Source of the DNA: Candidatus Binatia bacterium
GTDB lineage: Bacteria > Desulfobacterota > Binatia > Bin18
Direction: 5' to 3'
NCBI GenBank assembly: GCA_963664395.2
Contig: OY761159.2
Location: 3,488,001 to 3,552,000 of the forward strand
Length of the DNA: 64,000 bases
Below the pieces are notes generated by a model. The model did not search any database. It saw only the letters and a list, made by a program, of their open reading frames with translations, and was not told where the DNA came from. The position numbers and the translations under genes were made by a program. Shown in pieces: positions 5,389 to 64,000 of this stretch (within the stretch, counting starts at the first letter, position 1; each line of letters opens with the position of its first letter).

Positions 5389-8086
5389 GCCGTCCAACGG
5401 AGCCGCGCCGGAAACGCCCGCAGGCGGCAAAGTGCGCTATCAGCCCAGCGTCATCGAGCCCAAATGGCAGCGTTATTGGCTGGAGCACAAGACTTTTCGT
5501 GCTGAGATCGATCGGCACAAGCAAAAATACTACATCCTGGATATGTTCCCATATCCGAGTGCCGCCGGCCTGCACGTCGGACACCCTGAAGGCTATACCG
5601 CAACCGATATCCTGGCCCGCTATAAGCGCATGCGGGGATATAATGTCCTGCATCCCATGGGCTGGGATGCGTTCGGACTGCCGGCGGAACAATATGCGAT
5701 TGAGACGGGCACGCATCCGCGTGAAACAACGGCCCGCAATATCGATACCTTTCGGCGTCAAATCCAAGCCCTGGGCTTTTCCTACGATTGGGACCGGGAG
5801 ATTGCTACTTGTGCGCCTGATTACTATCGCTGGACGCAATGGATTTTCCTCAAACTCTATGAGCGCGGTCTGGCCTATATGGCAGAGGTAGCGGTCAATT
5901 GGTGTCCGGCCCTGGGCACGGTACTGGCCAATGAAGAAGTGATAGACGGCAAGAGTGAGCGCGGCGGACACGAGGTCATCCGCAAGCCCATGCGGCAGTG
6001 GATGCTGCGGATTACGGCCTATGCGGAACGGCTGTTAGCCGGACTCGACGACCTGGATTGGCCGGAAAATGTCAAGGAAATGCAGCGCAACTGGATCGGG
6101 CGGAGTGAGGGCGCCCGTATTCGTTTCCGGCTGTGTCACGGCGATGGTACTGCGTTTGCGGAAGAGGATGCCTTTTTCGATGTCTTTACCACGCGCCCGG
6201 ATACGCTGTTTGGCGCGACCTATTGTGTCCTGGCCCCGGAACATCCCTTGGTTGAGCGTATCACCACCCCGAAAAATCGGGACGCGGTTGCGGCGTATAC
6301 ACAAGAGGCGCTACGCAAGTCCGACCTGGCCCGCACGGAATTGGTGAAAGAAAAGACCGGGGTCAACACGGGCGGCTATGCATTGAACCCCGTTAATGGC
6401 GAGCCGATTCCGATTTGGGTCGCCGACTATGTCCTGTTCACCTATGGAACCGGGGCGATTATGGCTGTGCCGGGCGGAGACGAGCGAGACTGGGCTTTTG
6501 CCCGCCAGTTTGACATCCCGATTGTTGAAGTGGTCCAGGGTGGGGATATCGAAACCGGAGCCTATACCGGAGACGGACCCCATGTGAACTCGGGCTTTTT
6601 GGATGGTCTCGACGTAGCCGCAGCCAAGAAAAAGATGCAGGCCTGGCTGGAGGAAAACGGACACGGCGAAGGCACGGTGAACTATAAGCTGCGGGACTGG
6701 CTGTTCAGTCGCCAGCGGTATTGGGGCGAGCCGTTTCCGATTCTCCATATAGACGGACAACCTCAGCCGCTTGCGCCACATGACCTGCCCGTACTCCTAC
6801 CCGAAGTCGAGAGTTTTCGACCAACCGGAACCGGCGAGCCGCCGCTGGCCGCGGCTCGGGGGTGGGTGGAGACGACCGAACCGGCATCGGGTCAGCCGGC
6901 GTTACGGGAAACAAACACTATGCCCCAGTGGGCCGGGAGCTGCTGGTACTTTTTGCGTTTCCTGGACCCGCAGAATGCGGACAAGCCGTGGGACGCGGAC
7001 CCGGAGCAATACTGGATGCCGGTGGATTTATATGTAGGGGGAGTGGAGCATGCCGTGCTGCACTTGTTGTATGCCCGTTTTTGGCACCATGTCCTGTATG
7101 ACTGTGGCCTTGTATCCACCCCTGAACCGTTCCAGCGCTTGGTCAATCAAGGTATGATCCTGGGCTTCAGTTATCGGTACTACCAAGACGAGCAGGGTCA
7201 TCGCTATGCGGCGCACGCCGTTGAGAAGATCACTCGAGACGGCAGCGAGGGGGCCGAGTACTCGCTCAAGGCGGACCCGACGAAACACCTCAGTGTGGAG
7301 TATGTGCCGGTAGACCAAGTGGTGTGGCGAGACGACAAGCCCTATCACCCGGATGATACGGACCTGGAACTGGAGCCCCAAACCGACAAAATGTCGAAAT
7401 CGCGGGGCAATGTCGTGAATCCTGATGTCGTGATTGCGGAGTATGGGGCCGATGCGTTGCGCTGCTATGAGATGTTTATGGGGCCGCTGGAACAGGTCAA
7501 GCCATGGAATACGCGCTCCGTTGCCGGGGTGTATCGTTTCCTGCACCGGGCCTGGGCGTTGATTGTCGCCGACACCGGCAGCCTGCGCTCGGACATTGCC
7601 GACATGGAACCGCAGCCCGACGCAGCGCTCACCCGCCTCTTTCATAAAACGGTGAAAAAGGTCAGGGAAGACATCGAAGGTATGCGCTTCCACACCGCGC
7701 TGAGCGCCCTGATGGTGTTTGTGAACGACGCGCAAAAGGCGGCTCGCCTGCCGCGGGTGCTGGCTGAGGGCTTTGTGCTGTTGCTCGCTCCCTTTGCGCC
7801 CCATCTGGGCGAAGAATTGTGGCAGCGTCTTGGGCACGCGGATACCCTGACATACGAAACCTGGCCGGCGTACGACCCGGAGCTCACTCAGGATGATACG
7901 GTCACCATCGCGGTACAGGTCAACGGAAAATTCCGGGCGACCATCGAACTTGCCGCTGACGCGGATAAAGAAGCGACCTTAGGCGCGGCTCGAAACCAAG
8001 ACAAAGTGGCCGCATATTTAGCCGGCAAGACCATCCGGCGCGAAATCGTTGTGCCGGGGCGACTGGTGAACTTCGTTATCGCCTAG
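5372..8086 (+). CDS. leuS: Leucyl-tRNA synthetase
   Basis: [20 protein letters not shown] and KMSKS motifs; start uncertain. Confidence 0.97.
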
Positions 8087-8120
8087 CGTCTTGTTGAAGA
8101 CTTCCCGGCGCAGGTCTTTC

Positions 8121-8699
8121 ATGAAGAAAGTGTGTTCCATTTTGATCGCCGTGTGTGCCTGCCTGTGGAGCGCGTGTGGCTATCATTTTTCTGGGGTCAC
8201 CTCCTTGCCGCAGGGCATCGACAGTGTGAGCTTTGCTGAATTCTCCAATCATACGCTTGAGACCGGTGTGGAAAAGGAACTCCAGTGGGCCATTGAGCGA
8301 GAGTTTCGGACGCATAGGAATATTCGGATAACCGACATTGGCGAAGGTGTGGTCTCCGTCCAACTCCAGAGGTTAGACCTGCGTCCGTTTTCATTTGACC
8401 GCCGCGCTCAGGTCCTTGAGTACGAAATGGTGCTTGCCCTCGATATCCAGCTCACCGACCGAGGGAGCGGGAAAGTCCTGTGGCAGGCAAACGATCTGCG
8501 GGTGACGGAATATTACAGCGCTATTCCCCAGGTCTTGGTGACGACCTCGCCTGAATTTCTGCAGGGAACGCTCGACCCTGGAGACCTGCCTGGCCTCACG
8601 GACGTGCAGTTCTCGGAGACGCAACGCCGCCTCACCATTACGCGCCTCTTTGCAGCGGCAGCACGTGAAGTCTATTTTCGCTTGGGCGACAATTTCTAA
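8121..8699 (+). CDS. lptE: LPS assembly lipoprotein LptE family
   Basis: Lipobox SACGYHF; conserved position after leuS. Confidence 0.75.
   Translation: MKKVCSILIAVCACLWSACGYHFSGVTSLPQGIDSVSFAEFSNHTLETGVEKELQWAIEREFRTHRNIRITDIGEGVVSVQLQRLDLRPFSFDRRAQVLEYEMVLALDIQLTDRGSGKVLWQANDLRVTEYYSAIPQVLVTTSPEFLQGTLDPGDLPGLTDVQFSETQRRLTITRLFAAAAREVYFRLGDNF
8656..8699 (+). repeat. Left att-like direct repeat (lptE 3' end)
   Basis: 44 bp, matches 19949-19992 with 3 mismatches. Confidence 0.9.
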
Positions 8700-8780
8700 C
8701 TGTTTTTACTCTACCTCTGTATTGGTGGAGTTGCTGTTCCGCGTCCACGGATGAGGATTCCGATTCAGGGCGGCCCTGCT

Positions 8781-8816
8781 CCCCTCTCGGGAGGGGTGGC
8801 CGTAGGCCGGGGTGGG
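8781..8816. repeat. REP-like double hairpin (DUF559-associated family)
   Basis: CCCCTCTCGGGAGGGGTGGCCGTAGGCCGGGGTGGG; same family as the copies at 50-64 kb. Confidence 0.8.
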
Positions 8817-8949
8817 TCTCCCCCCAGGTACGCCCATATTTGAGAGATAAGAGCTGAGCAGCGGTCAAGTGAGCTTGACTCATACATGCCGATTGTTACC
8901 ATCTCGCATTTCCAGCAGTCGGTCCTTTTCCCGAGAGAGGAAATATCAC

Positions 8950-9417
8950 ATGCCCCGCAACGACCAAGTCATGCGCCAGTTGGTGCTGTTGCAGAAGTTA
9001 GACGGCTCCCGAGGAGCGACGCTACAAGAGTTGGCCGCATCCCTGCCTGAAGATTTATCGCGCCATCCGCGGACTATTCGGCGCGACCTCGAAGCTCTGG
9101 AACTCCGTTTTCCTCTGGTCATAGAGCAGAGAAACGGTCAAACGCGCTGGCGTCTCATGGACGGCTATCGCACGGCGCTTCCCCTGACGCTATCGGCAAC
9201 GGAACTCATGGCTCTGGTCTTCAGCCGAGATTTGCTGAAACCCCTGGAGGGGACTGAAATCAAGGCATCTCTGGACTCGGCCCTCAACAAGGCTGCGGCA
9301 GCGCTGCCGACTGACGGGGTGCGGCACCCTGAGCAGCCCCAGGGACATTTTTCTGTTGGGCTGGGCTCTCACAAGAACTACCGTCAACATCGACGTACCA
9401 TAGACCAACTCTCATAT
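8950..9417 (+). pseudogene. Truncated HTH-WYL (YafY/PafB-like) transcriptional regulator
   Basis: wHTH RTIRRDLEAL and LTLSxxELxAL linker; sequence breaks off before the WYL domain at a REP-like element. Confidence 0.75.
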
Positions 9418-9451
9418 CCCCTCTCCCCCTGGGAGAGGGTTAGGGTGAGGG
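9418..9451. repeat. REP-like element
   Basis: CCCCTCTCCCCCTGGGAGAGGGTTAGGGTGAGGG at the WYL truncation point. Confidence 0.7.
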
Positions 9452-9468
9452 AGAAAGGAACGCAGCGT

Positions 9469-9594
9469 ATGCCCTCGATTGATTTAGCGTTTCGCCTGAC
9501 TGGATCAGCCGTTCCGGTTGACCACGGCTATGCGTTGTACGCCGCGCTAGGCCGGATGCTGCTCTCAACCTTCAGCAAAATATCCGCCTCTTAA
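9469..9594 (+). pseudogene. cas6: N-terminal fragment of Cas6 (I-MYXAN Cmx6-like)
   Basis: MPSIDLAFRLTGSAVPVDHGYALYAAL resembles the Cmx6 N-terminal DLxFxxxGxxxPxDHGYxLY motif; own RBS (GAAAGG). Confidence 0.7.
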
Positions 9595-9611
9595 ATAGAA
9601 GGACCATTTTT

Positions 9612-10598
9612 ATGGATGATTTCTCACCGTCTGATCTCAAAACCATTCTCCACTCAAAACGTGCCAATATGTACTACCTTCAACACTGTCGGGTATTGGT
9701 TAATGGCGGCCGAGTGGAATACGTAACCGATCAGGGTAAACAGTCGCTCTACTGGAATATTCCAATCGCCAATACGACATCTTTGCTTTTGGGGACGGGC
9801 ACCTCAATAACACAAGCAGCTATGCGCGAATTAGCCAAGGCTGGAGTATTGGTCGGGTTTTGCGGCGGTGGAGGCGCACCGCTGTTTGCGGCAAACGAAG
9901 TCGAAGTAGAAGTAGAAGTGTCTTGGCTTAGTCCACAGAGTGAGTATCGGCCTACGGAGTATTTACAGCACTGGGTCAGCTTCTGGTTTGACGAAGGCAG
10001 CCGTGTTGCCGCTGCGAAAGCGTTTCAACGCGTGCGCTTTGAACAGATTAGAAAACACTGGTTTGACTCAACAATGCAACGGGAAAGCGCATTTGGTCTC
10101 AGCGCCGCTGATCTCATTGCGATTCTTGATACGACACAAAAATCGCTGGAATCGTGTCAAACAACCAATGCCATTCTTTCGCTGGAGGCCCAGATTACAA
10201 AGCGCCTGTACAGACTCGCGGTCAATGCTGTTGGCTATGGAGAGTTCGTCCGCGCAAAACGTGGCTCAGGCTCCGATCTGGCCAATCGATATCTTGACCA
10301 TGGGAATTATCTCGCTTACGGATTAGCGGCCACCGCGGCTTGGGTACTTGGCTTACCTCATGGTCTCGCTGTACTGCACGGAAAAACCAGGCGTGGAGGG
10401 CTGGTTTTTGATATTGCCGATCTGGTGAAGGACGCTCTGGTCCTCCCGCAATCCTTCATTTCTGCAATGGCCGGTCAAGATGAACAAGAATTTCGCCAAG
10501 CCTGCATCCAACGATTCAACCAAGCCGAAGCGTTAGACACCATGATAGACTCAATCAAGTCTGCTGCCATTGAGTTCAGTAAAGTGCCGAAGCCATGA
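9612..10598 (+). CDS. cas1: Type I-F Cas1
   Basis: LKTILHSKRAN, YWNIPIANT, EYRPTEY, HGKTRRGGLVFDIAD. Confidence 0.96.
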   Translation: MDDFSPSDLKTILHSKRANMYYLQHCRVLVNGGRVEYVTDQGKQSLYWNIPIANTTSLLLGTGTSITQAAMRELAKAGVLVGFCGGGGAPLFAANEVEVEVEVSWLSPQSEYRPTEYLQHWVSFWFDEGSRVAAAKAFQRVRFEQIRKHWFDSTMQRESAFGLSAADLIAILDTTQKSLESCQTTNAILSLEAQITKRLYRLAVNAVGYGEFVRAKRGSGSDLANRYLDHGNYLAYGLAATAAWVLGLPHGLAVLHGKTRRGGLVFDIADLVKDALVLPQSFISAMAGQDEQEFRQACIQRFNQAEALDTMIDSIKSAAIEFSKVPKP

Positions 10599-13500
10599 AT
10601 ATATTACTGATCTCTCAGTGCAATAAAAAAGCCTTGGTCGAAACGAGACGTGTTCTGGACCAATTTGCAGAACGCAAGGGTGAGCGTACCTGGCAAACAG
10701 CGATCACGCTGCAAGGTTTGCAGACACTCCGCAAAATGTTGAAAAAGTCAGCGCGGAGGAATACCGCCGTGGCCTGCCACAGAATCGGCGGGAAGAATTA
10801 TAGTGAATTGCTGTGGGTTGTGGGCAACACCAATAGGTTCAATACCGAAGGCACCATACCAACCAATTTCACCAGTCGGGACGTACTGAAGACGGATGAT
10901 GAGAACCAATGGCACACGGCAGAAGACATCGCCTTGCTTGCCGCGCTTGCCGCGCTGTTTCACGATTTTGGTAAAGCAAATGCGCTGTTCCAGAAAAAGC
11001 TGAAAGAACACAGAAACCTCTCGGAACCTTATCGTCACGAATGGGTGAGTTTAAGAATGTTCCAGTCTTTTGTTCGTGAAGATATGGACGAACAATGGCT
11101 GAGTCGATTGACCAAAGTTTCGAGTGAAGATGACGCACCCCTTTTGCAGTATCTCGAAACAATACAAGACCATCCAGACACGTTTCGTGCCCAACCATTC
11201 ACCGCCATGCCTCGCCTCGCTCAGGCTGTAGGCTGGCTCATCCTCACCCATCATAAATTACCCCGCTCGGTCGATCCTGTAGTAAACCTCAAGTGGATTT
11301 CCAACTTTCTGCACCAATCACTGTTGCCGAATTGGAATTCACCCCAAATCGCGACATATAAAGGCCACGATCTGACGGCTGCCATGAGAAAGGAATTACA
11401 CCAAGTCTGGCACTTCCCGGCAGGTACTCCATTTAGAAGCGACACGTGGTGCTCAAAAGCGCAGCGGATAGCTCGACGGCTGCTTGGCCGTCAGAGTATT
11501 TTTGTGCGTGACTGGCTTGATGACAGCTTCAGCATACATGTTTCGCGCATGGCGCTGATGCTGGCCGACCACCATTATTCGTCTTGTCCCAGCACCCCTG
11601 CCTATGGCGATGCCCGTTATACAGCGTATGCAAACACCGACAGAAAAACACGTCAATTAAAACAACAACTCGATGAACACCTGGTAGGCGTCTACAAACA
11701 TAGTTTGTGGCTTGTGCGCACCCTCCCAGGGCTGAGGAACACCCTGCCGGCAATCGGGCGGCATTCTGCCTTCAAGAGACGCACGCGGGACGGACGATTT
11801 CTCTGGCAGAACAAGGCCTATGACCTGGCCTATTCCCTGAAGGACCAGGCTCAGGCAGGCGGTTTTTTTGGGGTCAACATGGCGTCAACCGGTTGTGGCA
11901 AGACTTTCGCCAACGCGCGAATCATGTACGCCCTGGCTAATGAAAAACGCGGCTGTCGGTTTAGTGTTGCGTTGGGTTTACGAACCCTGACGCTACAGAC
12001 CGGCGACGCCTTCCGGCAGATATTGAATTTGGACGAAGACGATATGGCAGTTCTGATCGGTTCCGCTGCGGTCCGTAAACTCCATGAAGAGAAAAAGAAA
12101 GATGAAGATAATTTCAGCGGCTCAGAATCTGCTGATCCACTATTGGATACGGACTATCACGTGAGATATGAGGGGGCGCTTGCTGATAGTGCCCTCAGAC
12201 GCTGGTTAGAAGCCTCACCAAAACTCAACAGCATGGTCAGTGCGCCTATACTGGTCAGCACCATAGATCATCTCATGCCGGCGACGGAAGGCACTCGCGG
12301 CGGCAGGCAGATTGCCCCTATGCTCCGCCTGCTTACCTCAGACCTTGTGTTGGATGAGCCGGATGAATTTGGGCTGGCGGATGTGCCGGCGCTGACCCGC
12401 CTAGTGTATTGGGCTGGAATGCTGGGCAGCAAAGTCGTTCTGTCTTCCGCAACTCTGGCGCCCGCTCTCGTTGAAGGACTCTTCAAGTCGTATAGCGCCG
12501 GGCGGAATGCCTATAACAACAGTTGCGGGGACCCCCATCATCAGCCGCCTGTCTGCTGTGCCTGGTTTGATGAGACGAAGGCCGAGCACGCAACAATTGC
12601 CAATGCGGAAGATTTTTGTCAGCAGCACTCCGTCTTCACAGATAAACGTGCGGCTAGACTGGCGAACCTCCCTCCAAAACGAAAAGCCGAATTGTTGCCG
12701 CTGCCTGGCCAGACACAGAGCGCTCATGATGCGATAGCCACCTTCGGTGAGGCCATATCTGAAGGCATGCGGCAACTACATCAGCAACACTATCAGGAGA
12801 ATCGGGAGAACAATAAAAAGGTCAGCATCGGCTTGGTACGTATGGCCAACATCAGGCCACTCGTTGCAGTGGCGAAGTACCTGCTTCAATCGTCACCCCC
12901 GACTGATACGACTGTCCACTACTGCATTTACCACAGCCGGTTTCCACTGATTGTTCGTTCTGAAACCGAAGGTATTCTCGATGCGGTACTGAACAGAAAA
13001 GACCCGAAGAATATCTGGCAATTCCCCACCATCAAAAACGCGCTCAAGAGCACCGATACCACACACCATATATTTGTCGTGTTAGCCTCGCCCGTAGCCG
13101 AAGTAGGACGCGACCACGATTACGATTGGGCCATAGCCGAACCAAGCTCCATGCGCTCAATAGTGCAACTGTCCGGGCGTGTTCTGCGTCATAGAGATAC
13201 GCTGCCGGGAAAGCCGAACGTGCTCCTGCTGGAAAAGAACTACAGAGGCATGACAGGCAAACGGCCTGCTTTTTGTCGTCCCGGTTTCGAGCATAAAGAC
13301 AGGCCGCTTCAAACACGGAAATTGTCAAACAATTTACTCCCCGAGCAATATCGCGTGATCGACGCACGGCCCTGCCTCGTTCCGAGACCCCCCCTCCTTC
13401 CTACTCAAAACCTGGCTGATATGGAGCACAGAGAAATTTCTTTAACTTTCGACGACCCTGAAGATCCGCGTACCCCTCACGCCTTACAATGGCTCAAGCC

Positions 13501-13867
13501 CCATGCCACGCTGACCGGCGAGCTACAGCAACGCACCCCGTTTCGGCTATCGCTCAAAGAAGACGACTATTTTCTACAGCTTGAGGAAGATGATGAAGAA
13601 TTTACCGTTATGAAGTGGCATGAAACGGGCGAAGCAAAAGAATGCAACGAGATAGAATCCATCCCGCTTGAACTGAAGTCCGGGAATACAATCTGGGGGC
13701 ACGTCAGTTATACGGACGCCATGAATCGTCTGGCACAGCGGGAAGATATTGAGATGGAAGAACTCAGCCGTATCTACGGAGTCTTTTCACTGCCACAGAA
13801 TAAACGGACCGGCCGGCCTTGGTGCTATACCCCGGAACTCGGTTTCTATAAACCGCTGACGGACTGA
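10595..13867 (+). CDS. cas3: Type I-F Cas2-Cas3 fusion nuclease/helicase
   Basis: N-terminal Cas2 (SQCxKKALxETRRVLDQFAER), HD motif FHDFGK, MASTGCGKT, LDEPD, EVGRDHDYDW. Confidence 0.96.
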   Translation: MNILLISQCNKKALVETRRVLDQFAERKGERTWQTAITLQGLQTLRKMLKKSARRNTAVACHRIGGKNYSELLWVVGNTNRFNTEGTIPTNFTSRDVLKTDDENQWHTAEDIALLAALAALFHDFGKANALFQKKLKEHRNLSEPYRHEWVSLRMFQSFVREDMDEQWLSRLTKVSSEDDAPLLQYLETIQDHPDTFRAQPFTAMPRLAQAVGWLILTHHKLPRSVDPVVNLKWISNFLHQSLLPNWNSPQIATYKGHDLTAAMRKELHQVWHFPAGTPFRSDTWCSKAQRIARRLLGRQSIFVRDWLDDSFSIHVSRMALMLADHHYSSCPSTPAYGDARYTAYANTDRKTRQLKQQLDEHLVGVYKHSLWLVRTLPGLRNTLPAIGRHSAFKRRTRDGRFLWQNKAYDLAYSLKDQAQAGGFFGVNMASTGCGKTFANARIMYALANEKRGCRFSVALGLRTLTLQTGDAFRQILNLDEDDMAVLIGSAAVRKLHEEKKKDEDNFSGSESADPLLDTDYHVRYEGALADSALRRWLEASPKLNSMVSAPILVSTIDHLMPATEGTRGGRQIAPMLRLLTSDLVLDEPDEFGLADVPALTRLVYWAGMLGSKVVLSSATLAPALVEGLFKSYSAGRNAYNNSCGDPHHQPPVCCAWFDETKAEHATIANAEDFCQQHSVFTDKRAARLANLPPKRKAELLPLPGQTQSAHDAIATFGEAISEGMRQLHQQHYQENRENNKKVSIGLVRMANIRPLVAVAKYLLQSSPPTDTTVHYCIYHSRFPLIVRSETEGILDAVLNRKDPKNIWQFPTIKNALKSTDTTHHIFVVLASPVAEVGRDHDYDWAIAEPSSMRSIVQLSGRVLRHRDTLPGKPNVLLLEKNYRGMTGKRPAFCRPGFEHKDRPLQTRKLSNNLLPEQYRVIDARPCLVPRPPLLPTQNLADMEHREISLTFDDPEDPRTPHALQWLKPHATLTGELQQRTPFRLSLKEDDYFLQLEEDDEEFTVMKWHETGEAKECNEIESIPLELKSGNTIWGHVSYTDAMNRLAQREDIEMEELSRIYGVFSLPQNKRTGRPWCYTPELGFYKPLTD

Positions 13868-13911
13868 AACCGGTATGTTCACCGCCGGACGGACCGCTAA
13901 GAAAGGATTTT

Positions 13912-15177
13912 ATGGACGGACTTGCCACACACATTCTGGAATATATCCAGGAGCGTAGAGATGAGAAACTGAAAAAAGAAAAGGACGCTGCCAAGCAACT
14001 GGAAATTACAGCTAAGCACGAGCCTGAAACCTGGCTGAGCGATGCGGCCCGGCGAGCAAAACATCTCACCCTTGCCACTCATTCTCCTAAATATGTTCAC
14101 CCGGACGCTAATGGCACCAGCATCAACTCTATGAGTTCGGACAAAGTCGGTGACGGATACATCTCCACGCAGAGCGTGTCGGAGATTCCATACGACGTGG
14201 TTGGGACCGCCGCTGCACAGGCTGTCGGGAATTTCCTCTTGCTTGAGCACGAAGGGCAAATCCTGATTGACACCTTACGGCGGGGCGAGAATGCGCCGCT
14301 CCTCGCAATTGCACCCGATGCGGATACGGCCCAAGAGTGGGCGGATGGGTTTTTGTCAGTGCTGGCGTCGTCGGAGCCGAGCGCTCACAAGTTTTCAAAG
14401 CAGTGTTATTGGCCGGTGAAAATCGATGAATACCATATCCTCATTCCTCTCTACGCCACCTCACTGGCGCACACGCTCCACTCTACTATTCAACACGCAC
14501 GATTCTCCGACGAAGCCAAAGCAACCCGTGAACTTCGTCGAAAGGAAGAGTATTCCGAGCAGGAAGATATCCGTTATCTGGACATTGCCGTTCAGGGCTT
14601 TGGCGGAACGAAACCCCAAAACATCAGCCAACTGAACAGTCAGCGTGGCGGCAAAGCCTATCTTGTTTCGTGCGAACCGCCGGATTGGCAACAGCAGGCC
14701 ACCCCACCCCTGCACATCAGTTCCATTTTTCACCAGCGCTTTGAACGCAGTTTGTATCGTGAACACATTCAGCCGTTACACGATTTTCTCCAGCGCGTCG
14801 CCGACAAGCCCAATAATGACAGAATCAAAAAACAACGCGCCCAACGTCTGGATGAAATTGTCTACGAGATTTTGAATCTGGCCGCGTTTATCCAGAACTT
14901 ACCGCCTGGGTGGAGTAAGGACCCTGCCTGCCAGTTGAAACATGAGGAACAATTCTGGCTCGATCCTGGTAGGTCCGAGACGGATGAGGAGTTCCGGGCT
15001 CAGCGGGACGCAACGGACTGGCCGGTCCAGGTCGCGCAGAACTTCGCCATCTGGCTCAGTCAAAAACTTGAGAGCGACACGCTTGCCTTCGGCGCGATCG
15101 AACAGCGTGAATTGCGATCTCTTCTGGAACCTGAACTACGGCACAATTTTATGACAGCGGAGGAGGAAGGACTGTAA
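13912..15177 (+). CDS. csy1: Csy1/Cas8f
   Basis: WLxDAARRA, THxxKxxHPDA, FGGTKPQNISQLNSxRGG. Confidence 0.94.
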   Translation: MDGLATHILEYIQERRDEKLKKEKDAAKQLEITAKHEPETWLSDAARRAKHLTLATHSPKYVHPDANGTSINSMSSDKVGDGYISTQSVSEIPYDVVGTAAAQAVGNFLLLEHEGQILIDTLRRGENAPLLAIAPDADTAQEWADGFLSVLASSEPSAHKFSKQCYWPVKIDEYHILIPLYATSLAHTLHSTIQHARFSDEAKATRELRRKEEYSEQEDIRYLDIAVQGFGGTKPQNISQLNSQRGGKAYLVSCEPPDWQQQATPPLHISSIFHQRFERSLYREHIQPLHDFLQRVADKPNNDRIKKQRAQRLDEIVYEILNLAAFIQNLPPGWSKDPACQLKHEEQFWLDPGRSETDEEFRAQRDATDWPVQVAQNFAIWLSQKLESDTLAFGAIEQRELRSLLEPELRHNFMTAEEEGL

Positions 15178-16103
15178 TGGATTTTGTGATTATATTACGA
15201 AACCTGAAGGTCCACGGAGCCAATGCCATTACCGGCTTTACCTGGGGTTTTCCGGCGATCACTCACTTTCTGGGTTATACGCATGCCTTACAACGAAAGT
15301 TGCCGGAAAAGTTCGACCTCAGTTTTGACGGCTGCGGCCTCGTTTGCCACACACACCAAGTGCATGCGCATAAACCCTCTCCCTATGCTGACTCTCGTTT
15401 TGCGTTGAGTAGAAATCCGCTCGACAAGAGCGGTAAGTCCGCTTCATTTGTCGAAGAGGGCAAGATGAATATGGAAGTCACGCTTCTCATATCGGTTACG
15501 GAAAATTCTCAGGTTGATGTAGAGGGAAGAGAAGAACTCATTGGCTTTTTGTCACAGCAATCGGCAAGGCAGCGCTTGGCCGGTGGCCTTATTACGAACG
15601 CGCCAACCGTTGAGATTGCGGATGTCCAGGACGAGAAGCACAGCAAGAGATTGCTCCGCAGCCTGTTGCCGGGTTTTACGCTGGTGAGTCGTCACGATGT
15701 ATTGCTTGCCGAGCAGGACCGACAACGGAAGGCCAACACACCGGAGCCGGAATTGGCGGCTTGGTTGTCGTTTTCTTCCCTGCGGTATGCCGCCGATCAG
15801 GACAAAACAAAGGATGGGAAGACTCCGTGGCGATTACAGGAAAAATCCTACAAAGGCTGGGTCAAGCCAATCGCCATTGGCTACAAGCGCATTTCGCAGT
15901 TGTATGAACCCGGCGCAATCGCTAAAACACGCGATGCTTCTTCGCCGGCCTGTTTTGTTGAAAATCTTTATTCCATAGGGCAATGGCTCAGCCCGCACAG
16001 AATCAGAGAACTGAGCCACCTGTTCTGGCAGTATGAATACACCGAGTCAGGTGCATACGTATGCAGCAATAATTACCGACCCGCAATTGACTACATAGAC
16101 TGA
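15177..16103 (+). CDS. csy2: Csy2/Cas5f
   Basis: ANAIxGxTWGFPAxTxFxGxxHALxR and GQWLSPHR. Confidence 0.94.
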
Positions 16104-16128
16104 GAGATTGACGAGGAGGAGAGTGAAT

Positions 16129-17157
16129 ATGGCACAGTTAAAGACCGCATCAGTTTTGGCGTTCGAGCGTAAATTGGCGAATTCCGATGGCCTGATGTAT
16201 TCGGGCAGTTGGGAGAATCGAGACAAGGTGGAGTCCTGGTCTCCGGTGACGCTCCACGAGAAATCAATACGCGGCACCATCTCAAATCGCCAGAAAAACG
16301 CTATTGCTTCAGACCCCTTGAAACTCGACAACGAAATCCAAAAGCCCAATTTGCAGACAGTCGATGTGGCCGTATTACCGTTCCAACATGACACGCTGAA
16401 AGTGTCGTTCACGCTACGGATATTAGCCGGGCTGGACCAGCCGTCAGCCTGTAACAGCCAGGACTATCAGGAGGCATTGGGTAAAACGATCAATACGTAT
16501 ATCGCCGAGCACGGTTTTGCCGAATTATCCAAACGCTACGCCACAAACATTGCCAATGGCCGCTTCCTGTGGCGGAACCGGGTGGGAGCCGAGGCGGTCA
16601 ATGTCAGTGTGACCCGGTATCGAGACCGGGAACCGCTGGGCAAATGGCGCTTTGACAGTAACAGCATCTCCTTACGTAAATTCGACACGACGGACACACA
16701 GGTATCCGAGCTTGCAGCCGCCATTGAAGCCGGCCTGAAGGGAGACGAGTTTACGTTTTTGAAGATAGAAGGCTTTGCCCGTCTCGGCGAGGGACAGGAG
16801 GTGTTTCCCTCACAAGAACTCATTTTAGACGGACGCAACAACAGGGAGGGCAAGAAGAGTAAAACGCTCTACCAAGTCGGGGACATCGCCGGTCTTCATT
16901 CTCAAAAAATTGGCAACGCCCTGCGAACAATCGATACCTGGTATCCCGAAGCGGACCAATTCGGCCCCATATCGGTCGAACCTTTTGGCTCCGTCACCAA
17001 TCGCGGGAAGGCATATCGCCAGCCCAAAGACAAGCTGGATTTCTACACACTTCTTGACGGTTGGGTATTAAGGGGAAAGACACCTGCGGTAGAGCAGCAA
17101 CATTATGTTATGGCGGTGCTGGTTCGAGGCGGCGTGTTCGGAGAAAAATCAGAGTGA
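16129..17157 (+). CDS. csy3: Csy3/Cas7f
   Basis: [46 protein letters not shown]. Confidence 0.96.
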
Positions 17158-17166
17158 GTTGACACA

Positions 17167-17718
17167 ATGGACCACCACGTTGATATCACAGTGCTTCCCG
17201 ACCCGGAATTTCCAGAAACCACATTGATGAATGCACTTTTTGCCAAGTTGCACCGGGCGTTGGGCAAACACGGTCACGGCAAAATAGGGGTGAGTTTTCC
17301 AGACCACAGCAAGACGCTTGGGGCACGCCTCCGTCTGCATAGCAGCAAAGGAGCGCTTGAAGAGTTCATGCAAACGAGTTGGATCACTGGCATGACGGAT
17401 TATTGTCATGTCGGTGATGTTCAACACGTGCCCCCTCTGACCTTATTTTGCACAGTCAGGCGAGTCCAAGCGAAAAGCGCCTCCAATAAACGGAAACGTT
17501 CGGTGGCAAAGGGCTGGTTGGATGAATCCGAAGCGCAGAAGCGTATTCCTGATTCTCAGCAGCGAACGCTTGATCTGCCCTACGCTCAACTACGCAGCTT
17601 ATCGAATGGGAATATGATGCGCATTTATATTGAGCATGGTGAGCTGGTCCAACAATCGGTAGAAGGGCCATTTTCCGCCCATGGTCTCAGCAGCACTACT
17701 ACCGTACCCTGGTTTTAA
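17167..17718 (+). CDS. cas6f: Cas6f/Csy4 endoribonuclease
   Basis: LPDPEF, LHRAL, IGVSFP, GLSxxxTVPWF. Confidence 0.95.
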   Translation: MDHHVDITVLPDPEFPETTLMNALFAKLHRALGKHGHGKIGVSFPDHSKTLGARLRLHSSKGALEEFMQTSWITGMTDYCHVGDVQHVPPLTLFCTVRRVQAKSASNKRKRSVAKGWLDESEAQKRIPDSQQRTLDLPYAQLRSLSNGNMMRIYIEHGELVQQSVEGPFSAHGLSSTTTVPWF

Positions 17719-17847
17719 CCCTTTTTTTCCAGGTATCCATAACATCTTGATTTACCTACAGATTTTTTAGGGGTTCGTATTAAGGTAAAATTACTGCGTT
17801 TTACCCGAACTCCTGAAAAATCAACAGCTTACGCGTATATTCCTACG
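17719..17847 (+). promoter_or_regulatory. CRISPR leader with two IHF-consensus sites
   Basis: AT-rich; WATCAANNNNTTR matches at 17819-17831 (+) and 17740-17752 (-); inverted repeats AACCC/GGGTT and GGTAAAA/TTTTACC, as in type I-F leaders. Confidence 0.85.
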
Positions 17848-19531
17848 GTTCACTGCCGGACAGGCAGCTAAGAAATAGCCCAACCGGGATACTGTGATCG
17901 GAACATCGTTCACTGCCGGACAGGCAGCTAAGAAAATTGGGGGGCACCAGTCCCGAGACGGTAAGTGTTCACTGCCGGACAGGCAGCTAAGAAAAGAACA
18001 AACGGACGGGCTAGACCAGCGGTTCACTGCCGGACAGGCAGCTAAGAAATAAGAGGGCAGCCTTGGAGCGCTAACCCGTTCACTGCCGGACAGGCAGCTA
18101 GTCGTTCACTGCCGGACAGGCAGCTAAGAAAAGCTAAGAAATCCATGGCCACGATACTGCCGGACAGGCAGCGAAAACAAACTGTTCACTGCCGGACAGG
18201 CAGCTAAGAAATACGTCAATGCAGGAACCCGCCGAACGAAGAGTTCACTGCCGGACAGGCAGCTAAGAAAACTACACGTCCGCCACGTCCTCCCCCGTCG
18301 TTCACTGCCGGACAGGCAGCTCCACCGTCCTAGGTTCACTGCCGGACAGGCAGCTAACGGCCTTCCAAGACGTCGTTCACTGCCGGACAGGCAGCTAAGA
18401 AAGAAGATGGCGCATACGTTGTCATTGAATGTTCACTGCCGGACAGGCAGCTAAGAAAAAAGCCGCGTTCCGATCGCATAGAGGAGATAGGTTCACTGCC
18501 GGACAGGCAGCTAAGAAAACCTACATGGACATCCTGAGGCCGACGGCACGGTGTTCACTGCCGGACAGGCAGCTAAGAAATTACATGTTGCGGGCACGGC
18601 ATGCTTTTGAGTTGTTCACTGCCGGACAGGCAGCTAAGAAAACCAGAGCAATGCGCGTACATGGGCCGACCTCGTTCACTGCCGGACAGGCAGCTAAGAA
18701 ATTAGCCTGGGCCGCTCTCGCTGGTATGGTATCGTTCACTGCCGGACAGGCAGCTAAGAAAAAGGGGTACGACCTGGGCCAAAAAGGCACCCAGTTCACT
18801 GCCGGACAGGCAGCGAAATCACCGAACGCTGCACCCGTTGCTGTCCCGCCGTTCACTGCCGGACAGGCAGCTAAGAAAATGCACACTGCCGGACAGGCAG
18901 CTAAGAAAATGAGCAACGCCGAGTCGCCTCCAGGTTCACTGCCGGACAGGCAGCTAAGGGTAGCGTTCACTGCCGGACAGGCAGCTAAGAAAAAGAGAGA
19001 AAGCTAATCTTTTTCTGTCGGAGGTTCACTGCCGGACAGGCAGCTAAGAAAATAAATATACAAGACTGCGCGGCAGCCGAACCGTTCACTGCCGGACAGG
19101 CAGCTAAGAAAAGCAGTACGACCTTGATCGAGAATAAAGCGACGTTCACTGCCGGACAGGCAGCTAAGAAATTGATACCCAGACGATATCCGGCCTTATT
19201 CGGGTTCACTGCCGTACAGGCAGCTAAGAAATACAACACCAACGTCGTTCATTACGACCGGAAGTTCACTGCCGTACAGGCAGCTAAGAAAAACGATGGG
19301 GGATGTGTCAGGGTTGAGGGGCTGTTCACTGCCGTACAGGCAGCTAAGAAATAATACGGCAGACCTGGAGAGCCAGGCATGACGTTCACTGCCGTACAGG
19401 CAGCTAAGAAAAAGAGAGAAAGCTCTATCTTTTTCTGTCGGAGGTTCACTGCCGTACAGGCAGCTAAGAAAAAGAACGGCCCCCACGGGTAGGACGGCCT
19501 GTAGTTCACTGCCGGACAGGCAGCTAAGAAA
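17848..19531 (+). CRISPR. Type I-F CRISPR array, ~32 repeats including several partial ones
   Basis: 28-bp repeat GTTCACTGCCG(G/T)ACAGGCAGCTAAGAAA; 32-nt spacers and 60-bp period where regular. Confidence 0.98.
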
Positions 19532-19809
19532 TTACTGACAAAACTTCTCCATCAAGAAGGGCATCGTCTCCATGTTCACGCATGTGGCGAAATGCGTCAT
19601 CCCAGCGGCTCCGGGGCTGTCTGGCCGGACGCCAATTCTAAGGAAGTCAACTACTTAGGCCGTCGTGCAGCCCCAAAATCAAAGTCGATTGGAAATTTTC
19701 CCCGGAAAGGGGGGGATAAAGGGGCGGTACAGGGCCTTTGAAGCCCCGAAAAAAGGGCCGAATTACGATCAGGCCCTCCCTTGGCCGGCTTTTACAGAAA
19801 TTCGGCCTC

Positions 19810-19836
19810 TGGATGCCGGATCACGTCCGGCATGAC
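19810..19836. repeat. GTCAT-type REP-like palindrome
   Basis: Reverse complement reads GTCATGCCGGACGTGATCCGGCATCCA. Confidence 0.6.
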
Positions 19837-19912
19837 AAGAGCGTAGCGGCATGGCTACAGCGTGAAACACTCTCGTTGAGTGAAAAAATCACCGGCCTTG
19901 CCTGACAGGGAA

Positions 19913-19950
19913 TGCCTGCTGGATACCAATATCGTCTCGGAACCGCTACG
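19913..19950 (+). pseudogene. PIN-domain (VapC-like) N-terminal fragment
   Basis: CLLDTNIVSEPLR matches the VapC start motif and is cut at the right direct repeat. Confidence 0.55.
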
Positions 19951-19992
19951 GCGGCACGCGAAGTCTATTTTCGCCTGGGCGACAATTTCTAA
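19949..19992 (+). repeat. Right att-like direct repeat (copy of the lptE 3' end)
   Basis: CGGCGGCACGCGAAGTCTATTTTCGCCTGGGCGACAATTTCTAA. Confidence 0.9.
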
Positions 19993-20033
19993 TGGAAATG
20001 GAAAAGGGGCCAAAGTGCCCCTTGACGACGGAG

Positions 20034-20306
20034 TTAGGCCGAAGCGGCGGTCTTGTGTTTGTGGACGAGTTTTGAAAGCTGACCCACATGACGGTCTGCG
20101 GCTTTTTTGGGAATAAGACGTTTCTGACCCGCCCGATGGAGTGCGCTGACCGCCGTCCGCAGAGAACTCTCGACTGCGTCGCTCTCTCCCCTCACGACCG
20201 CTGCTTCTACTTGTTTCATGAAGGTCTTCACCCGTGATTTTGCTGCGTGGTTACGGACTTTCCGAACCTCGCTCTGACGATGTCGTTTCTTTTCTCCTGA
20301 TGCCAC
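20034..20306 (-). CDS. rpsT: 30S ribosomal protein S20
   Basis: KKRxRQSExRxxRNxxxKSRVKT; basic, 90 aa. Confidence 0.9.
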   Translation of the reverse strand: MASGEKKRHRQSEVRKVRNHAAKSRVKTFMKQVEAAVVRGESDAVESSLRTAVSALHRAGQKRLIPKKAADRHVGQLSKLVHKHKTAASA

Positions 20307-20516
20307 GTAATACTCCTCTCTTGAACATTATTCCTACCATGGGTAGGGAGACTGATCAATGTCGGGCAAGAGCTGGTGGCCGAGGAGGACGGCCGGGCAA
20401 AAGGGCAAAGGTGGACACCGTGCTGGCCCGGTCGCTGACGCATTTTTTGTTGCGTTCCGCATTCCCAATCTTCTCCGGCGTCTCGTCGGTGAGGGGGCAA
20501 AGATGAACTACCGGCC

Positions 20517-21347
20517 TTACTGGGTATCCTGCCCCAACGCCTGCTTGGCCTCCTGCCACAATTCCTCCAGCCGCGTCAGTGAGGTCTGATGGATATCCTC
20601 CCGGCTGTGTGCGAGTTGCTCTTCGATGTAACGAAAGCGTTTGTTGAAACGCCCGTTGGCTTTGCGCAGGGCAGACTCGGCATCCAGGTCAAGATGGCGG
20701 GCCAGGCTCGTCAAAGCAAGCAACAGGTCTCCGAGCTCATGTTCCTGGTGCTGTGTGTGAGTGGTTGCCAGTGCTGCTTCCAATTCCTTGTACTCTTCCG
20801 CCACCTTTTCAAAAACCGCGGTGGCTGACGGCCAGTCAAAGCCGACTCGGGTGGCCTTTTCGCCTAAACGCTGAGCCTGGATTAAGGCTGGCGCGCCTTT
20901 GGGAACACCCGCCAGGATGGATTGATCCGCGGTTCCTTTTTTGTCCTTTTTTGCCTCTTTTTCTTTTTTTTCTTGGGCTTTAATTTTGGCCCAGTTCCGA
21001 CTGACCTCTTCGGCGCTCTCGACTTTCAGGTCACTGAACACGTGCGGATGGCGGCGGGTCATTTTATCGGTAATGGCTTGGGCAACATCGTCAATAGTAA
21101 ATTCACCAGCTTCGGCCATCAACTGAGAGTGAAAAACGATCTGGAGGAGTAAATCGCCCAATTCCTCTTTCAGCTCAGTCCAGTCTTCAGCCTCAAGCGC
21201 CTCCAGCACTTCGTAGGTCTCTTCGACGAGGTAGGGCTTGAGTGTCTGCGGCGTTTGCTCTTTATCCCACGGGCAGCCGTTTGGACTGCGGAGGGTCGCC
21301 ATAATTTCGACGAGTCGATCAAATGCGGGATGGGTAGGGCCTGCCAT
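20517..21347 (-). CDS. mazG: Nucleoside triphosphate pyrophosphohydrolase MazG
   Basis: LRSPxGCPWDxEQT, EELGDLLLQ, RRHPHVF, GFDW; start inferred. Confidence 0.95.
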   Translation of the reverse strand: MAGPTHPAFDRLVEIMATLRSPNGCPWDKEQTPQTLKPYLVEETYEVLEALEAEDWTELKEELGDLLLQIVFHSQLMAEAGEFTIDDVAQAITDKMTRRHPHVFSDLKVESAEEVSRNWAKIKAQEKKEKEAKKDKKGTADQSILAGVPKGAPALIQAQRLGEKATRVGFDWPSATAVFEKVAEEYKELEAALATTHTQHQEHELGDLLLALTSLARHLDLDAESALRKANGRFNKRFRYIEEQLAHSREDIHQTSLTRLEELWQEAKQALGQDTQ

Positions 21348-58728: not shown

Positions 58729-59640
58729 TCCCCTCCTTGGAGGGAAAGAGGAAACGTGTCCTCAACAGAGTAGGCAGATGTTGACACGTTTCCTCTTTGT
58801 GCCGCGTGAGCGGCGGGGTGGGTTTCTTCTGGGTTTCTTCTCTGGGGGGAAGCTAAGACAAAAGAGGCAGGGGGCAACCCACCCCGGCCCTTCGGGCCAC
58901 CCCTCCAAGGAGGGGAGCAGAGATTATGAAGCGGAAGATCGTGCCGTATAACCCGCGATTGAAGGAACTCGCTCGGCAACTTCGGAAGCAGATGACGCGG
59001 GCGGAGGCTCTGTTGTGGCAACAGCTCAAGGCACGGCAGATGGAGGGCTGTGACTTTGACCGACAGCGCCCTATCGATGAGTATATCGTGGACTTTTTTA
59101 GTAAGGACCTCATGCTGGCCATTGAGATTGATGGAGTAACACACGATACCGAAGCTGGACAGAAAAACGATCAGCGGAGGCAGAAACGCCTGGAAGCTCT
59201 GGGTGTCCGATTTTTGCGCTTTCAGGATGAGGAGGTCAAGCAGAATCTGGAAGGAGTGTTGACGGTCATTCGGGGGTGGATCGGGAAGAATAAACCCACC
59301 CCTCCGAGGAGCTAAGACAAAGGGGCAACCCACCCCGGCCTACGGCCACCCCTCCAAGGAGGGGAGCAGAACACATCCCCTCTCGGTCAAGGCTCTCACT
59401 ATCACCATAAGTGACATTTTTATCCCCTCCTCGGAGGGGTGGCCCGCAGGGCCGGGGTGGGTTCCTGGCACGCCCTCACGAGGAAACCCACCCCGCCGCT
59501 ACGCGGCACCCCTCCTGGGAGGGGATGGTGAAGGGAGCGCTACGCGGCACCCCTCCTGGGAGGGGATGGTGAAGGGAGCGCTGCGCGGCACCCCCTTCGA
59601 CTGGGCTCAGGACAGGCCCCCAAGAGGGGATGGTGAAGGG
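58729..59640. repeat. Cluster of REP-like double hairpins around the DUF559 gene, including direct repeats 58851-58921/59310-59370 and a 41-bp tandem
   Basis: About 7 copies of CCCACCCCG..ACCCCTCC..GGAGGGGA in both orientations. Confidence 0.9.
58926..59315 (+). CDS. DUF559 (Vsr-like PD-(D/E)XK) endonuclease-domain protein
   Basis: ARxLRKxMTxAExxLW, FxRQxPI..YIVDF, IEIDG..H, D..R...L...GxxxLRF. Confidence 0.92.
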   Translation: MKRKIVPYNPRLKELARQLRKQMTRAEALLWQQLKARQMEGCDFDRQRPIDEYIVDFFSKDLMLAIEIDGVTHDTEAGQKNDQRRQKRLEALGVRFLRFQDEEVKQNLEGVLTVIRGWIGKNKPTPPRS

Positions 59641-63789: not shown

Positions 63790-63935
63790 CCCTCTTTGTG
63801 CCGCGTAGGGGCGGGGTGGGTTTCGTAGTTTCGCCGCGCTGCCCGAACGAAGAGGGAACCCACCCCGGCCTGCGGCCACCCCTCCAAGGAGGGGAGTATC
63901 CACCCCGGCCTGCGGCCACCCCTCCAAGGAGGGGA
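63790..63935. repeat. REP-like cluster including a 40-bp tandem pair
   Basis: CCACCCCGGCCTGCGGCCACCCCTCCAAGGAGGGGAG twice, plus an inverted partial copy. Confidence 0.88.
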
Positions 63936-64000
63936 GCTGGAGGGTCTTGGCTTTGTGTTCTGCCGGGCGAGTTGGTAGGGTGAGCGTCAAGGGTTGGGAG

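Follow-up and report, generated by a model that had tools for sequence, protein, structure and literature searches.

A candidate core-flanked defence hotspot between lptE and rpsT in Candidatus Binatia, with two lptE 3' ends around a type I-F CRISPR-Cas system

Introduction

Some genomic islands that carry an integrase insert at the 3' end of a gene for a tRNA or a protein, bring a replacement for that end, and leave the displaced end at their far side. In the homology-facilitated illegitimate recombination of natural transformation, homology anchors one end of the incoming DNA and a microhomology of a few bases joins the other, a process by which a short segment of the recipient may become duplicated; we know of nothing on competence or transformation in Binatia. 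Here we analyse a 64,000-nucleotide (nt) stretch of a Candidatus Binatia genome (GenBank assembly GCA_963664395.2, contig OY761159.2, positions 3,488,001 to 3,552,000 of the forward strand; in full length, the window), in which a type I-F CRISPR-Cas system lies between the essential genes lptE and rpsT, bracketed by two copies of the lptE 3' end. Our preferred reading, to which we assign a probability of roughly 0.55, is that the lptE-rpsT gap is a long-standing defence hotspot flanked by core genes, whose content is turned over by homologous and microhomology-mediated recombination with no dedicated integrase.

The closest described systems are the hotspots cDHS1 and cDHS2 of Pseudomonas aeruginosa, which, in the passages that describe them, combine constant core flanks with variable cargo that includes CRISPR-Cas, and belong to no obvious class of mobile element (PMC10250203). 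The authors of these passages raise transfer by homologous recombination through the conserved flanks; cDHS2 is flanked by the ssrA tmRNA gene, and the wording "similar to cDHS1" implies that cDHS1 also has a non-coding RNA beside it (PMC10250203). As in cDHS1 and cDHS2, so far as those passages characterize them, the lptE-rpsT locus is core-flanked, holds variable cargo including CRISPR-Cas, and shows no mobile-element class; it differs in its phylum, in its convergent flanks lptE and rpsT, and in a cargo that consists almost exclusively of class 1 CRISPR-Cas subtypes and toxin-antitoxin modules. At lptE-rpsT the 3' ends of an essential gene are stranded, and duplication of a gene end does not figure in the cDHS passages (PMC10250203). 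Among the hotspots of defence islands in Escherichia coli, the route of mobilisation of some islands is described as unclear (10.1101/2022.06.09.495481). Occupancy and cargo vary between genomes there as they do at lptE-rpsT, and most E. coli islands are reported to ride recognisable mobile elements, unlike lptE-rpsT, where no mobile-element gene was found (10.1101/2022.06.09.495481). Our literature search returned no report of lptE as an integration site of genomic islands, and nothing specific on CRISPR in Binatota or Binatia, or on the swapping of subtypes at one locus.

Results

Two lptE Ends and the Native One

The features on which the comparison turns are the following.

8121..8699, + strand: lptE, intact, 192 amino acids (aa) (Pfam LptE; alternative start TTG of the open reading frame (ORF) at 8091)
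8656..8699, + strand: left repeat copy, the lptE 3' end in current use
19949..19992, + strand: right repeat copy, a non-functional and apparently displaced lptE 3' end
20004..20023, − strand: native hairpin GGGGCC..GGCCCC, terminator-like for rpsT, between the convergent genes
20034..20306, − strand: rpsT (ribosomal protein S20), the right core flank (TIGR00029, PF01649)

The product of 8121..8699 is LptE (PF04390, 35.1 bits against a cut-off of 23); homologues of 84-100% identity are also 192 aa long, and LptE at 96-100% identity is encoded on several multi-megabase contigs. For comparison, 24 loci (L001 to L024) were obtained by an LptE scan of species-representative genomes, mostly titled Candidatus Binatia, with LptE identities of 64-88%; the C-terminus ..RLG[DE][ND]F* is found in all 24. 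The final 14 codons of the window's lptE, together with its stop codon, form the left copy of a direct repeat (8656-8699 and 19949-19992) in which 41 of 44 bases are the same; the pattern occurs exactly twice in the window when up to three mismatches are allowed, and none of 100 dinucleotide-preserving shuffles reproduced the match. All three differences between left and right copy (8660 A/G, 8666 T/C, 8682 T/C) are synonymous, both copies encoding the end ..AAREVYFRLGDNF*, and homology between them breaks off sharply at 8655/19948. The initial annotation had reported this repeat and its three synonymous differences, and the comparison bears it out. Synonymous differences are what would be expected if both copies had been working alleles until the event that brought them together; if changes fell at random, an all-synonymous outcome would have P = 0.016-0.032, and the pattern is suggestive, not decisive.

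Empty sites, at which little but a hairpin separates the two genes, indicate which copy is native. At L001, L007, L010, and L015 the lptE stop codon is followed by TGGAAA..GGGGCC..GGCCCCTT and then by the end of rpsT, and the empty site of L016 has the same hairpin after a different opening. In the window it is the right copy that is followed by this hairpin and by rpsT, in the arrangement seen at L001, L010, L015, and L016, which are empty. The left copy runs into the junction CTGTTTTTACTC.., which is also found in L006, L008, L009, L011, and L012 and is absent at empty sites; a variant, CTGCTTTTA.., occurs in L005 and L006, and this insertion junction is common to the window and six occupied relatives. 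At both informative difference sites (2/2) the right copy agrees with L016, the closest sampled relative. Because its colinearity with hairpin and rpsT is that of the empty sites, the right copy is, judging from these comparisons, the lptE end originally present in the chromosome; the left copy probably came with the inserted DNA. If the right copy is the displaced native end, it follows that the lptE end now in use was supplied by incoming DNA, as had been proposed from the window alone.

Occupancy of the Gap among Relatives

The gene order ribBA-ribH-leuS-lptE, followed by rpsT on the opposite strand, is kept at the 24 loci wherever the contig allows; leuS-lptE is present in 23 and rpsT lies downstream in 22, the missing flanks coinciding with contig or locus ends (leuS in L024; rpsT in L004 and L007). 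What lies between lptE and rpsT is variable. The gap is empty, at about 40-100 nt, in 10 loci (L001, L010, L015-L019, L022-L024), and the contig of L007, a probable empty site, ends 66 nt past the lptE stop codon with the native hairpin visible. Another 10 loci (L002, L003, L006, L008, L009, L011, L012, L013, L020, L021) have a gap of 0.3-2.2 kb, filled by relics or by toxin-antitoxin genes, and three (L004, L005, L014) a gap of at least 8 kb with CRISPR-Cas genes. Recognised cargo is as follows.

L003: DUF433/DUF5615 pair
L004: type I-E system with Cas3, Cse1, and Cse2
L005: type I-MYXAN system with WYL/WCX regulator, Cas6, split Cas3, Cas8a1/Cmx1, DevR, Cas5/DevS, Cas4-Cas1, and Cas2
L008: Phd (104 aa) and PIN/VapC (136 aa)
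L011: helix-turn-helix (HTH) protein
L014: type I-C system

Together with type I-F in the window, four CRISPR-Cas subtypes occur at this site (I-F, I-E, I-C, and I-MYXAN). Relics accompany them: L002 keeps a solo CRISPR repeat of the family found in L005 (I-MYXAN) and L014 (I-C), and L003 keeps two repeats, which we take to be type I-E-like. In the leuS tree the empty L001 is sister to L005 (support 100), and the empty L010 is sister to L009, L011, and L012 (support 99). Because empty and occupied species are sisters several times, their interleaving on this tree points to many gains and losses of cargo. Conserved flanks, defence cargo that varies and may be missing altogether, and no hallmark genes of mobile elements are the marks of a core-gene-flanked defence hotspot, and all are found here. 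The initial annotation had suggested such a hotspot on the strength of one genome; comparison with relatives now supplies both the empty sites and the alternative cargo.

Several observations on individual inserts stand apart from this argument. In L004, 4.7 kb (10580-15300) separate lptE from the type I-E cas3; its ORFs had no match (10 searched in Pfam and PADLOC, 5 of those in NCBIfam), and its reading as a CRISPR array was rejected after only three 2-copy repeats were found. This stretch could be filler without coding function or cargo of an unknown kind, perhaps a defence system not yet described. The cas3 gene is split into two or three ORFs in L005 (11858-14084) and L014 (10689-12928), and cas7 is split in L014 (15434-16305), reflecting either decay of these systems at the hotspot or assembly frameshift errors. 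A small ORF that codes for a coiled coil and has a weak, CCDC90-like match in Pfam accompanies lptE-end copies in L009 (10596-11122), L011, and L012 (10585-11100), and is also found inside the cas operon of L005 on the opposite strand (17338-17808, minus).

Stranded Ends and Heterogeneous Junctions

Additional lptE ends are not peculiar to the window. In L006 and L008 a gap of about 1.1-1.2 kb contains nothing more than a phd/vapC module and, beside the native hairpin, a right-hand lptE end of about 75-80 nt, whose stop codon is mutated in L006. L009 and L011 have truncated internal copies of the lptE end. In L012 the last 45 nt of an internal tandem copy are 100% identical to the locus's own lptE end, and the same junction is repeated after it; the whole internal tandem measures 185 nt at 91% identity. 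The extra copies carry the allele signature ..LATARLFTAAAR.., which differs from that of the adjacent working copies (..VGRLF..) and resembles the working gene of L013; given these distinct signatures, the copies would be different alleles recombined over time. The initial annotation had taken the repeat as the limit of a CRISPR-Cas island, a view at odds with the same kind of duplication in L006 and L008, which hold phd/vapC only, and in L009, L011, and L012, which hold other small cargo.

The sharp limit of the 44-nt repeat is explained by comparison with L008, where intact phd and vapC genes lie immediately upstream of the right copy. The window matches L008 over 11179-11226 (the start of vapC) and over 11634-11760 (the right copy onward), and 11 nt of the window (19946-19956) belong to both matches, an overlap that falls on a motif of the CTGCGGC type found in vapC as well as in lptE. 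From this overlap it follows that the 44-nt limit is a microhomology junction inside vapC and not the core of an attachment (att) site. Of the three loci, L008 has a whole vapC, L006 one with an internal deletion, and the window one that is cut at about codon 13. In L009, L011, L012, and L013 the right copy is lost and the vapC start is joined directly to the hairpin. The left limits of extra lptE ends recur at about −72 to −82 nt from the stop codon in five relatives, and that of the window lies at −44. Insertion junctions differ: the insertion of L002 lies after the hairpin, and those of L004 and L014 follow the lptE stop codon directly, with other junction sequences and no lptE duplicate. 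These differences between junctions would argue against a single site-specific att site.

Older Relics around the Type I-F Module

The type I-F genes are set within remains of earlier occupants.

8700..8868, no strand assigned: module "A", left junction, non-coding, with a palindrome resembling a repetitive extragenic palindrome (REP) inside
8869..9594, + strand: chimeric relic ORF, 241 aa, N-terminal part of a WYL regulator fused to the start of Cas6
19803..19948, + strand: phd/vapC toxin-antitoxin relics matching L006 and L008

From lptE through module A (to 8798-8817) the window matches L006 and L008 at 85-88%, and module A is common to L003 and L013 from 8749 onward. In the relic ORF, PADLOC recognises WYL at residues 33-155 and type I-MYXAN Cas6 (its first 30 residues) at 201-230, with identities to L005 of 79% for the regulator and 75% for the cas6 start; DNA homology to L005 ends at 9560. 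On the far side, about 420 nt (19532-19948) hold phd/vapC scraps and are otherwise non-coding: 19803-19836 matches the sequence upstream of phd in L006, and 19909-19948 corresponds to roughly the first 13 codons of vapC (..LLDTNIVSEPL), which run directly into the right copy. Since L005-like homology stops at 9560 and homology to the L006 toxin-antitoxin region resumes at 19803, the I-F module extends over about 9561-19802 and appears to have displaced most of an older I-MYXAN system, of which stubs of the regulator and cas6 remain. The I-F module is narrower than the single unit of 8656..19992 delimited in the initial annotation and lies within older relics.

GC-rich intergenic palindromes of the form CCCCTCC..GGAGGGG occur in the window at 8770-8840, 59497-59594, and 63860-63936, and the same palindromes lie inside the hotspot inserts of relatives, for example in L012 at 11304-11387. 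They look REP-type and might be recombination substrates.

The Type I-F System

The module consists of the following elements.

9612..10598, + strand: cas1f (TIGR03637, 501.8 bits)
10595..13867, + strand: cas2-3f fusion (TIGR02562, 1260.8 bits; Pfam Cas2 domain at residues 1-78)
13876..13903, + strand: solo degenerate repeat-like sequence between cas2-3 and csy1, found by repeat-family search
13912-15177, + strand: csy1 (NCBIfam equivalog TIGR02564)
15177-16103, + strand: csy2 (NCBIfam equivalog TIGR02565)
16108-17157, + strand: csy3 (NCBIfam equivalog TIGR02566)
17167-17718, + strand: cas6f/csy4 (NCBIfam equivalog TIGR02563)
17848..19531, + strand: CRISPR array of 28-nt repeats, 27 in number, with further pieces of truncated repeats and uneven spacing in mid-array

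The cas1f gene and cas2-3 fusion, the four effector genes above their cut-offs, and the adjacent array of 28-nt repeats identify a type I-F (I-F1) system; the array repeat presumably resembles canonical I-F repeats. A type I-F3 CRISPR-associated transposon (CAST) would carry tnsA/B/C and tniQ and would lack cas1 and cas2-3; this assignment was rejected, as no transposase family matched and the module contains cas1 and cas2-3. The stretches 9480-9660 and 19520-19960 have no word of at least 9 nt in common, whether direct or inverted, and hence there is no sign of transposon ends around the module. Its GC content is 0.50-0.54, against 0.57-0.60 in the flanks. Neither I-F genes nor I-F repeats were found at the lptE-rpsT site of the 24 relatives' loci. 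Csy3 homologues of 80-90% identity are attributed to the genomes of L016, L005, L001, and L006, whereas gammaproteobacterial Csy3 reaches 64-71%; on account of this difference, related I-F systems appear to circulate within Binatia, located elsewhere in those genomes.

Two features of the module merit separate mention. The repeat-like sequence at 13876-13903 matches the CRISPR repeat at about 24 of 28 bases and sits in the 44-nt gap between cas2-3 and csy1; a role as Cas6f site was rejected, the canonical hairpin being lost and the fold no better than that of shuffles (z = -0.36), and the sequence may have been left behind when the array or the cas genes were rearranged, or may act as a decoy in regulation. 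The array is irregular (18022-18965, 18993-19023, and 19412-19443): in its middle several truncated repeats lie 26-41 nt apart, five successive repeats (19204-19471) carry a G-to-T variant, and two spacers at separate positions are near-duplicates (AAGAGAGAAAGCT..ATCTTTTTCTGTCGGAG). This irregularity suggests internal deletions together with segmental duplication or repeated acquisition.

Mosaic Flank and Search for Mobility Genes

By sliding-window identity, L016, whose site is empty, is nearest to the window across ribBA-ribH and rpsT-comF (88-94%). In leuS, L002 takes this place over two tracts, about 5900-6500 and 7500-8100, with 94-96% compared with 85-88% for L016. The left flank is therefore, on these identities, a probable mosaic, and since leuS is mosaic the window's own placement in the leuS tree is unsure.

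Across the 64 kb, 0/60 ORFs matched a family of integrases, transposases, or recombinases: none of the 16 ORFs of 3196-23826 (NCBIfam, Pfam), and none of the 44 further ORFs of at least 90 aa in the rest of the window. Among the 13 occupied relatives, integrases and transposases were likewise missing from all 65 cargo ORFs scanned in Pfam, out of 74 listed, the nine left out being ORFs of 60-101 aa. The initial annotation had seen only defence genes and fragments and no integrase between the repeat copies, and these scans agree. With respect to integrase-mediated islands, flanking repeats that include the 3' end of a target gene are present, and an integrase in or next to the island is absent. 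Integration of the Xer/dif type was also put aside, with no search aimed at dif-like sites. The lptE end and junction (8600-8870) had no match in 72,556 plasmid and 50,697 phage records, collections without obvious Binatia elements.

To the right of the hotspot, the rpsT-mazG gap measures 1.6-2.0 kb in L001-L003, L006, L008-L013, and L015-L021, and in L001 (10948-12705) it contains murJ, coding for a lipid II flippase of 585 aa (TIGR01695). In the window, murJ is reduced around 20307-20516 to three fragments (20251-20405, 20422-20500, and 20493-20650), about 1.4 kb having been deleted beside the hotspot; rpsT and mazG are also close together in L023 and L024. Either another flippase must be encoded elsewhere in the window's genome, or the assembly must be wrong here.

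Discussion

Observed at the locus are the native status of the right copy, differences in occupancy, remains of earlier cargo, a junction at microhomology, a mosaic flank, and the lack of any recombinase; the route of recombination and the order of events we infer from them. DNA of a related lineage would have entered the window lineage through homology in leuS-lptE, carrying a complete lptE end, module A, CRISPR-Cas cargo, and a phd/vapC module. The far side of this DNA would have been linked at the CTGCGGC-type microhomology, which lies inside vapC, to a point in the resident lptE about 44 nt ahead of its stop codon. Homology-facilitated illegitimate recombination may have formed the junction directly, or it may have arisen when a later deletion removed part of vapC and the front of a right copy of about 80 nt such as those of L006 and L008. 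In either case the right copy would be what was left of the resident lptE, its stranded end, and the essential gene would be kept whole by the end that came in. Type I-F would be a separate layer of cargo that replaced most of the I-MYXAN system at the same spot, and cargo would be exchanged by further recombination between the conserved flanks and shared internal modules. The gap presumably tolerates inserts because the essential genes on either side are convergent, and no promoter or operon is cut.

Compared with homology-facilitated illegitimate recombination, the window has the expected anchor in the mosaic leuS-lptE region and a far end at microhomology, although its junction could equally be a later deletion. 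Compared with integrase-borne islands, the lptE direct repeat flanks the insert, the gene is intact, and the displaced end lies on the far side, as would be expected; the locus differs in lacking an integrase, in the window as in 13 occupied relatives, in its heterogeneous junctions, and in its boundary at a vapC microhomology.

Of the explanations that compete with the hotspot turned over by recombination, two take the lptE end itself as the target. The last ~70-80 nt of lptE plus CTGTTTTKACTC might act as a portable homology handle, by which integrase-free cassettes of lptE end, junction, and cargo insert repeatedly through RecA-type recombination, renewing the lptE end, displacing the prior one, stacking into tandems as in L012, excising precisely between copies, and carrying four CRISPR-Cas subtypes; precise excision would then explain the empty sites among occupied sister species. 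We regard this as an unlikely extension of the data. Alternatively, the lptE 3' end could be a true att site, used perhaps more than once by a family of small integrative elements, their attP consisting of the last ~72-80 nt plus CTGTTTTKACTC, with the site-specific recombinase encoded elsewhere or lost and the 44-nt pair representing attL and attR, the right one trimmed. The classic footprint of such an island consists of direct repeats of a gene 3' end together with a replacement for that end, extra lptE ends with similar left limits stand beside different neighbours in L006, L008, L009, L011, and L012, the L012 tandem shows the same junction after both copies, and empty sites exist. Against these points must be set the clean recombinase scans of window and relatives, at least three junction types at the locus, the position of the window's repeat boundary at a microhomology in truncated vapC instead of a conserved core, and the absence of the junction and lptE end from the plasmid and phage collections searched, given their lack of obvious Binatia elements; an att site accordingly strikes us as doubtful. 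The possibility that the lptE end was duplicated in place, by tandem duplication or by replication slippage during an insertion or deletion, with no foreign allele and with a decaying right copy that acquired its differences as later mutations, would agree with the internal tandem of L012 and with the shared reading EVYFR (GAAGTCTATTTTCGC) of both window copies, which are closer to each other than to the EVSFR alleles of most relatives. It is harder to reconcile with three synonymous differences out of three, at positions where the sister species L016 agrees with the right copy, with the right copies of L006 and L008, whose TARLF.. next to their own working VGRLF.. indicates two alleles and not a self-copy, or with the foreign composition of the cargo between the copies, and we consider it improbable. 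Least probable by far is that the right copy is an assembly artefact or a chance match: the assembly probably derives from a metagenome, and assemblers can be misled by repeats, but the shuffles never reproduced the match, the right copy has exactly the position, with respect to hairpin and rpsT, that the native lptE end has in relatives, and the independent assemblies of L006, L008, and L012 show the same kind of duplicate.

Several points weigh against the hotspot without a dedicated integrase, and explain why we place it only somewhat above even odds. No donor of the inserted DNA was identified. The recurring left limits of the extra lptE ends in five relatives, and the tandem of L012, would also be expected if elements had integrated repeatedly at an att site. 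The all-synonymous outcome has P = 0.06-0.11 when the null is the least favourable one, with selection on the left copy only. The native status of the right copy, as read from these comparisons, draws on its flank and on two informative sites, and the mosaicism of leuS could reflect recombination in L016 or L002 and not in the window. Finally, the relatives are all metagenome-assembled genomes, in which some frameshifts or joins may be assembly errors.

What is new here is the lineage, the flanks, the nearly exclusive cargo of CRISPR-Cas and toxin-antitoxin modules, and the stranded ends of an essential gene; otherwise the locus behaves as known defence hotspots do. The movement of complete CRISPR-Cas systems that lack mobility genes of their own is only partly understood, and the lptE-rpsT locus offers a natural series within one clade, from empty sites through toxin-antitoxin modules and relics to four class 1 subtypes. 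It records the replacement of one subtype by another in place, together with the molecular scars of turnover: stranded lptE ends, a microhomology junction, and a mosaic flank. If the portable handle were real, it would amount to integrase-free targeting of cargo to the end of an essential gene. For the Binatia, which are uncultured and known only from metagenomes, lptE and rpsT provide a pair of markers for finding defence cargo.

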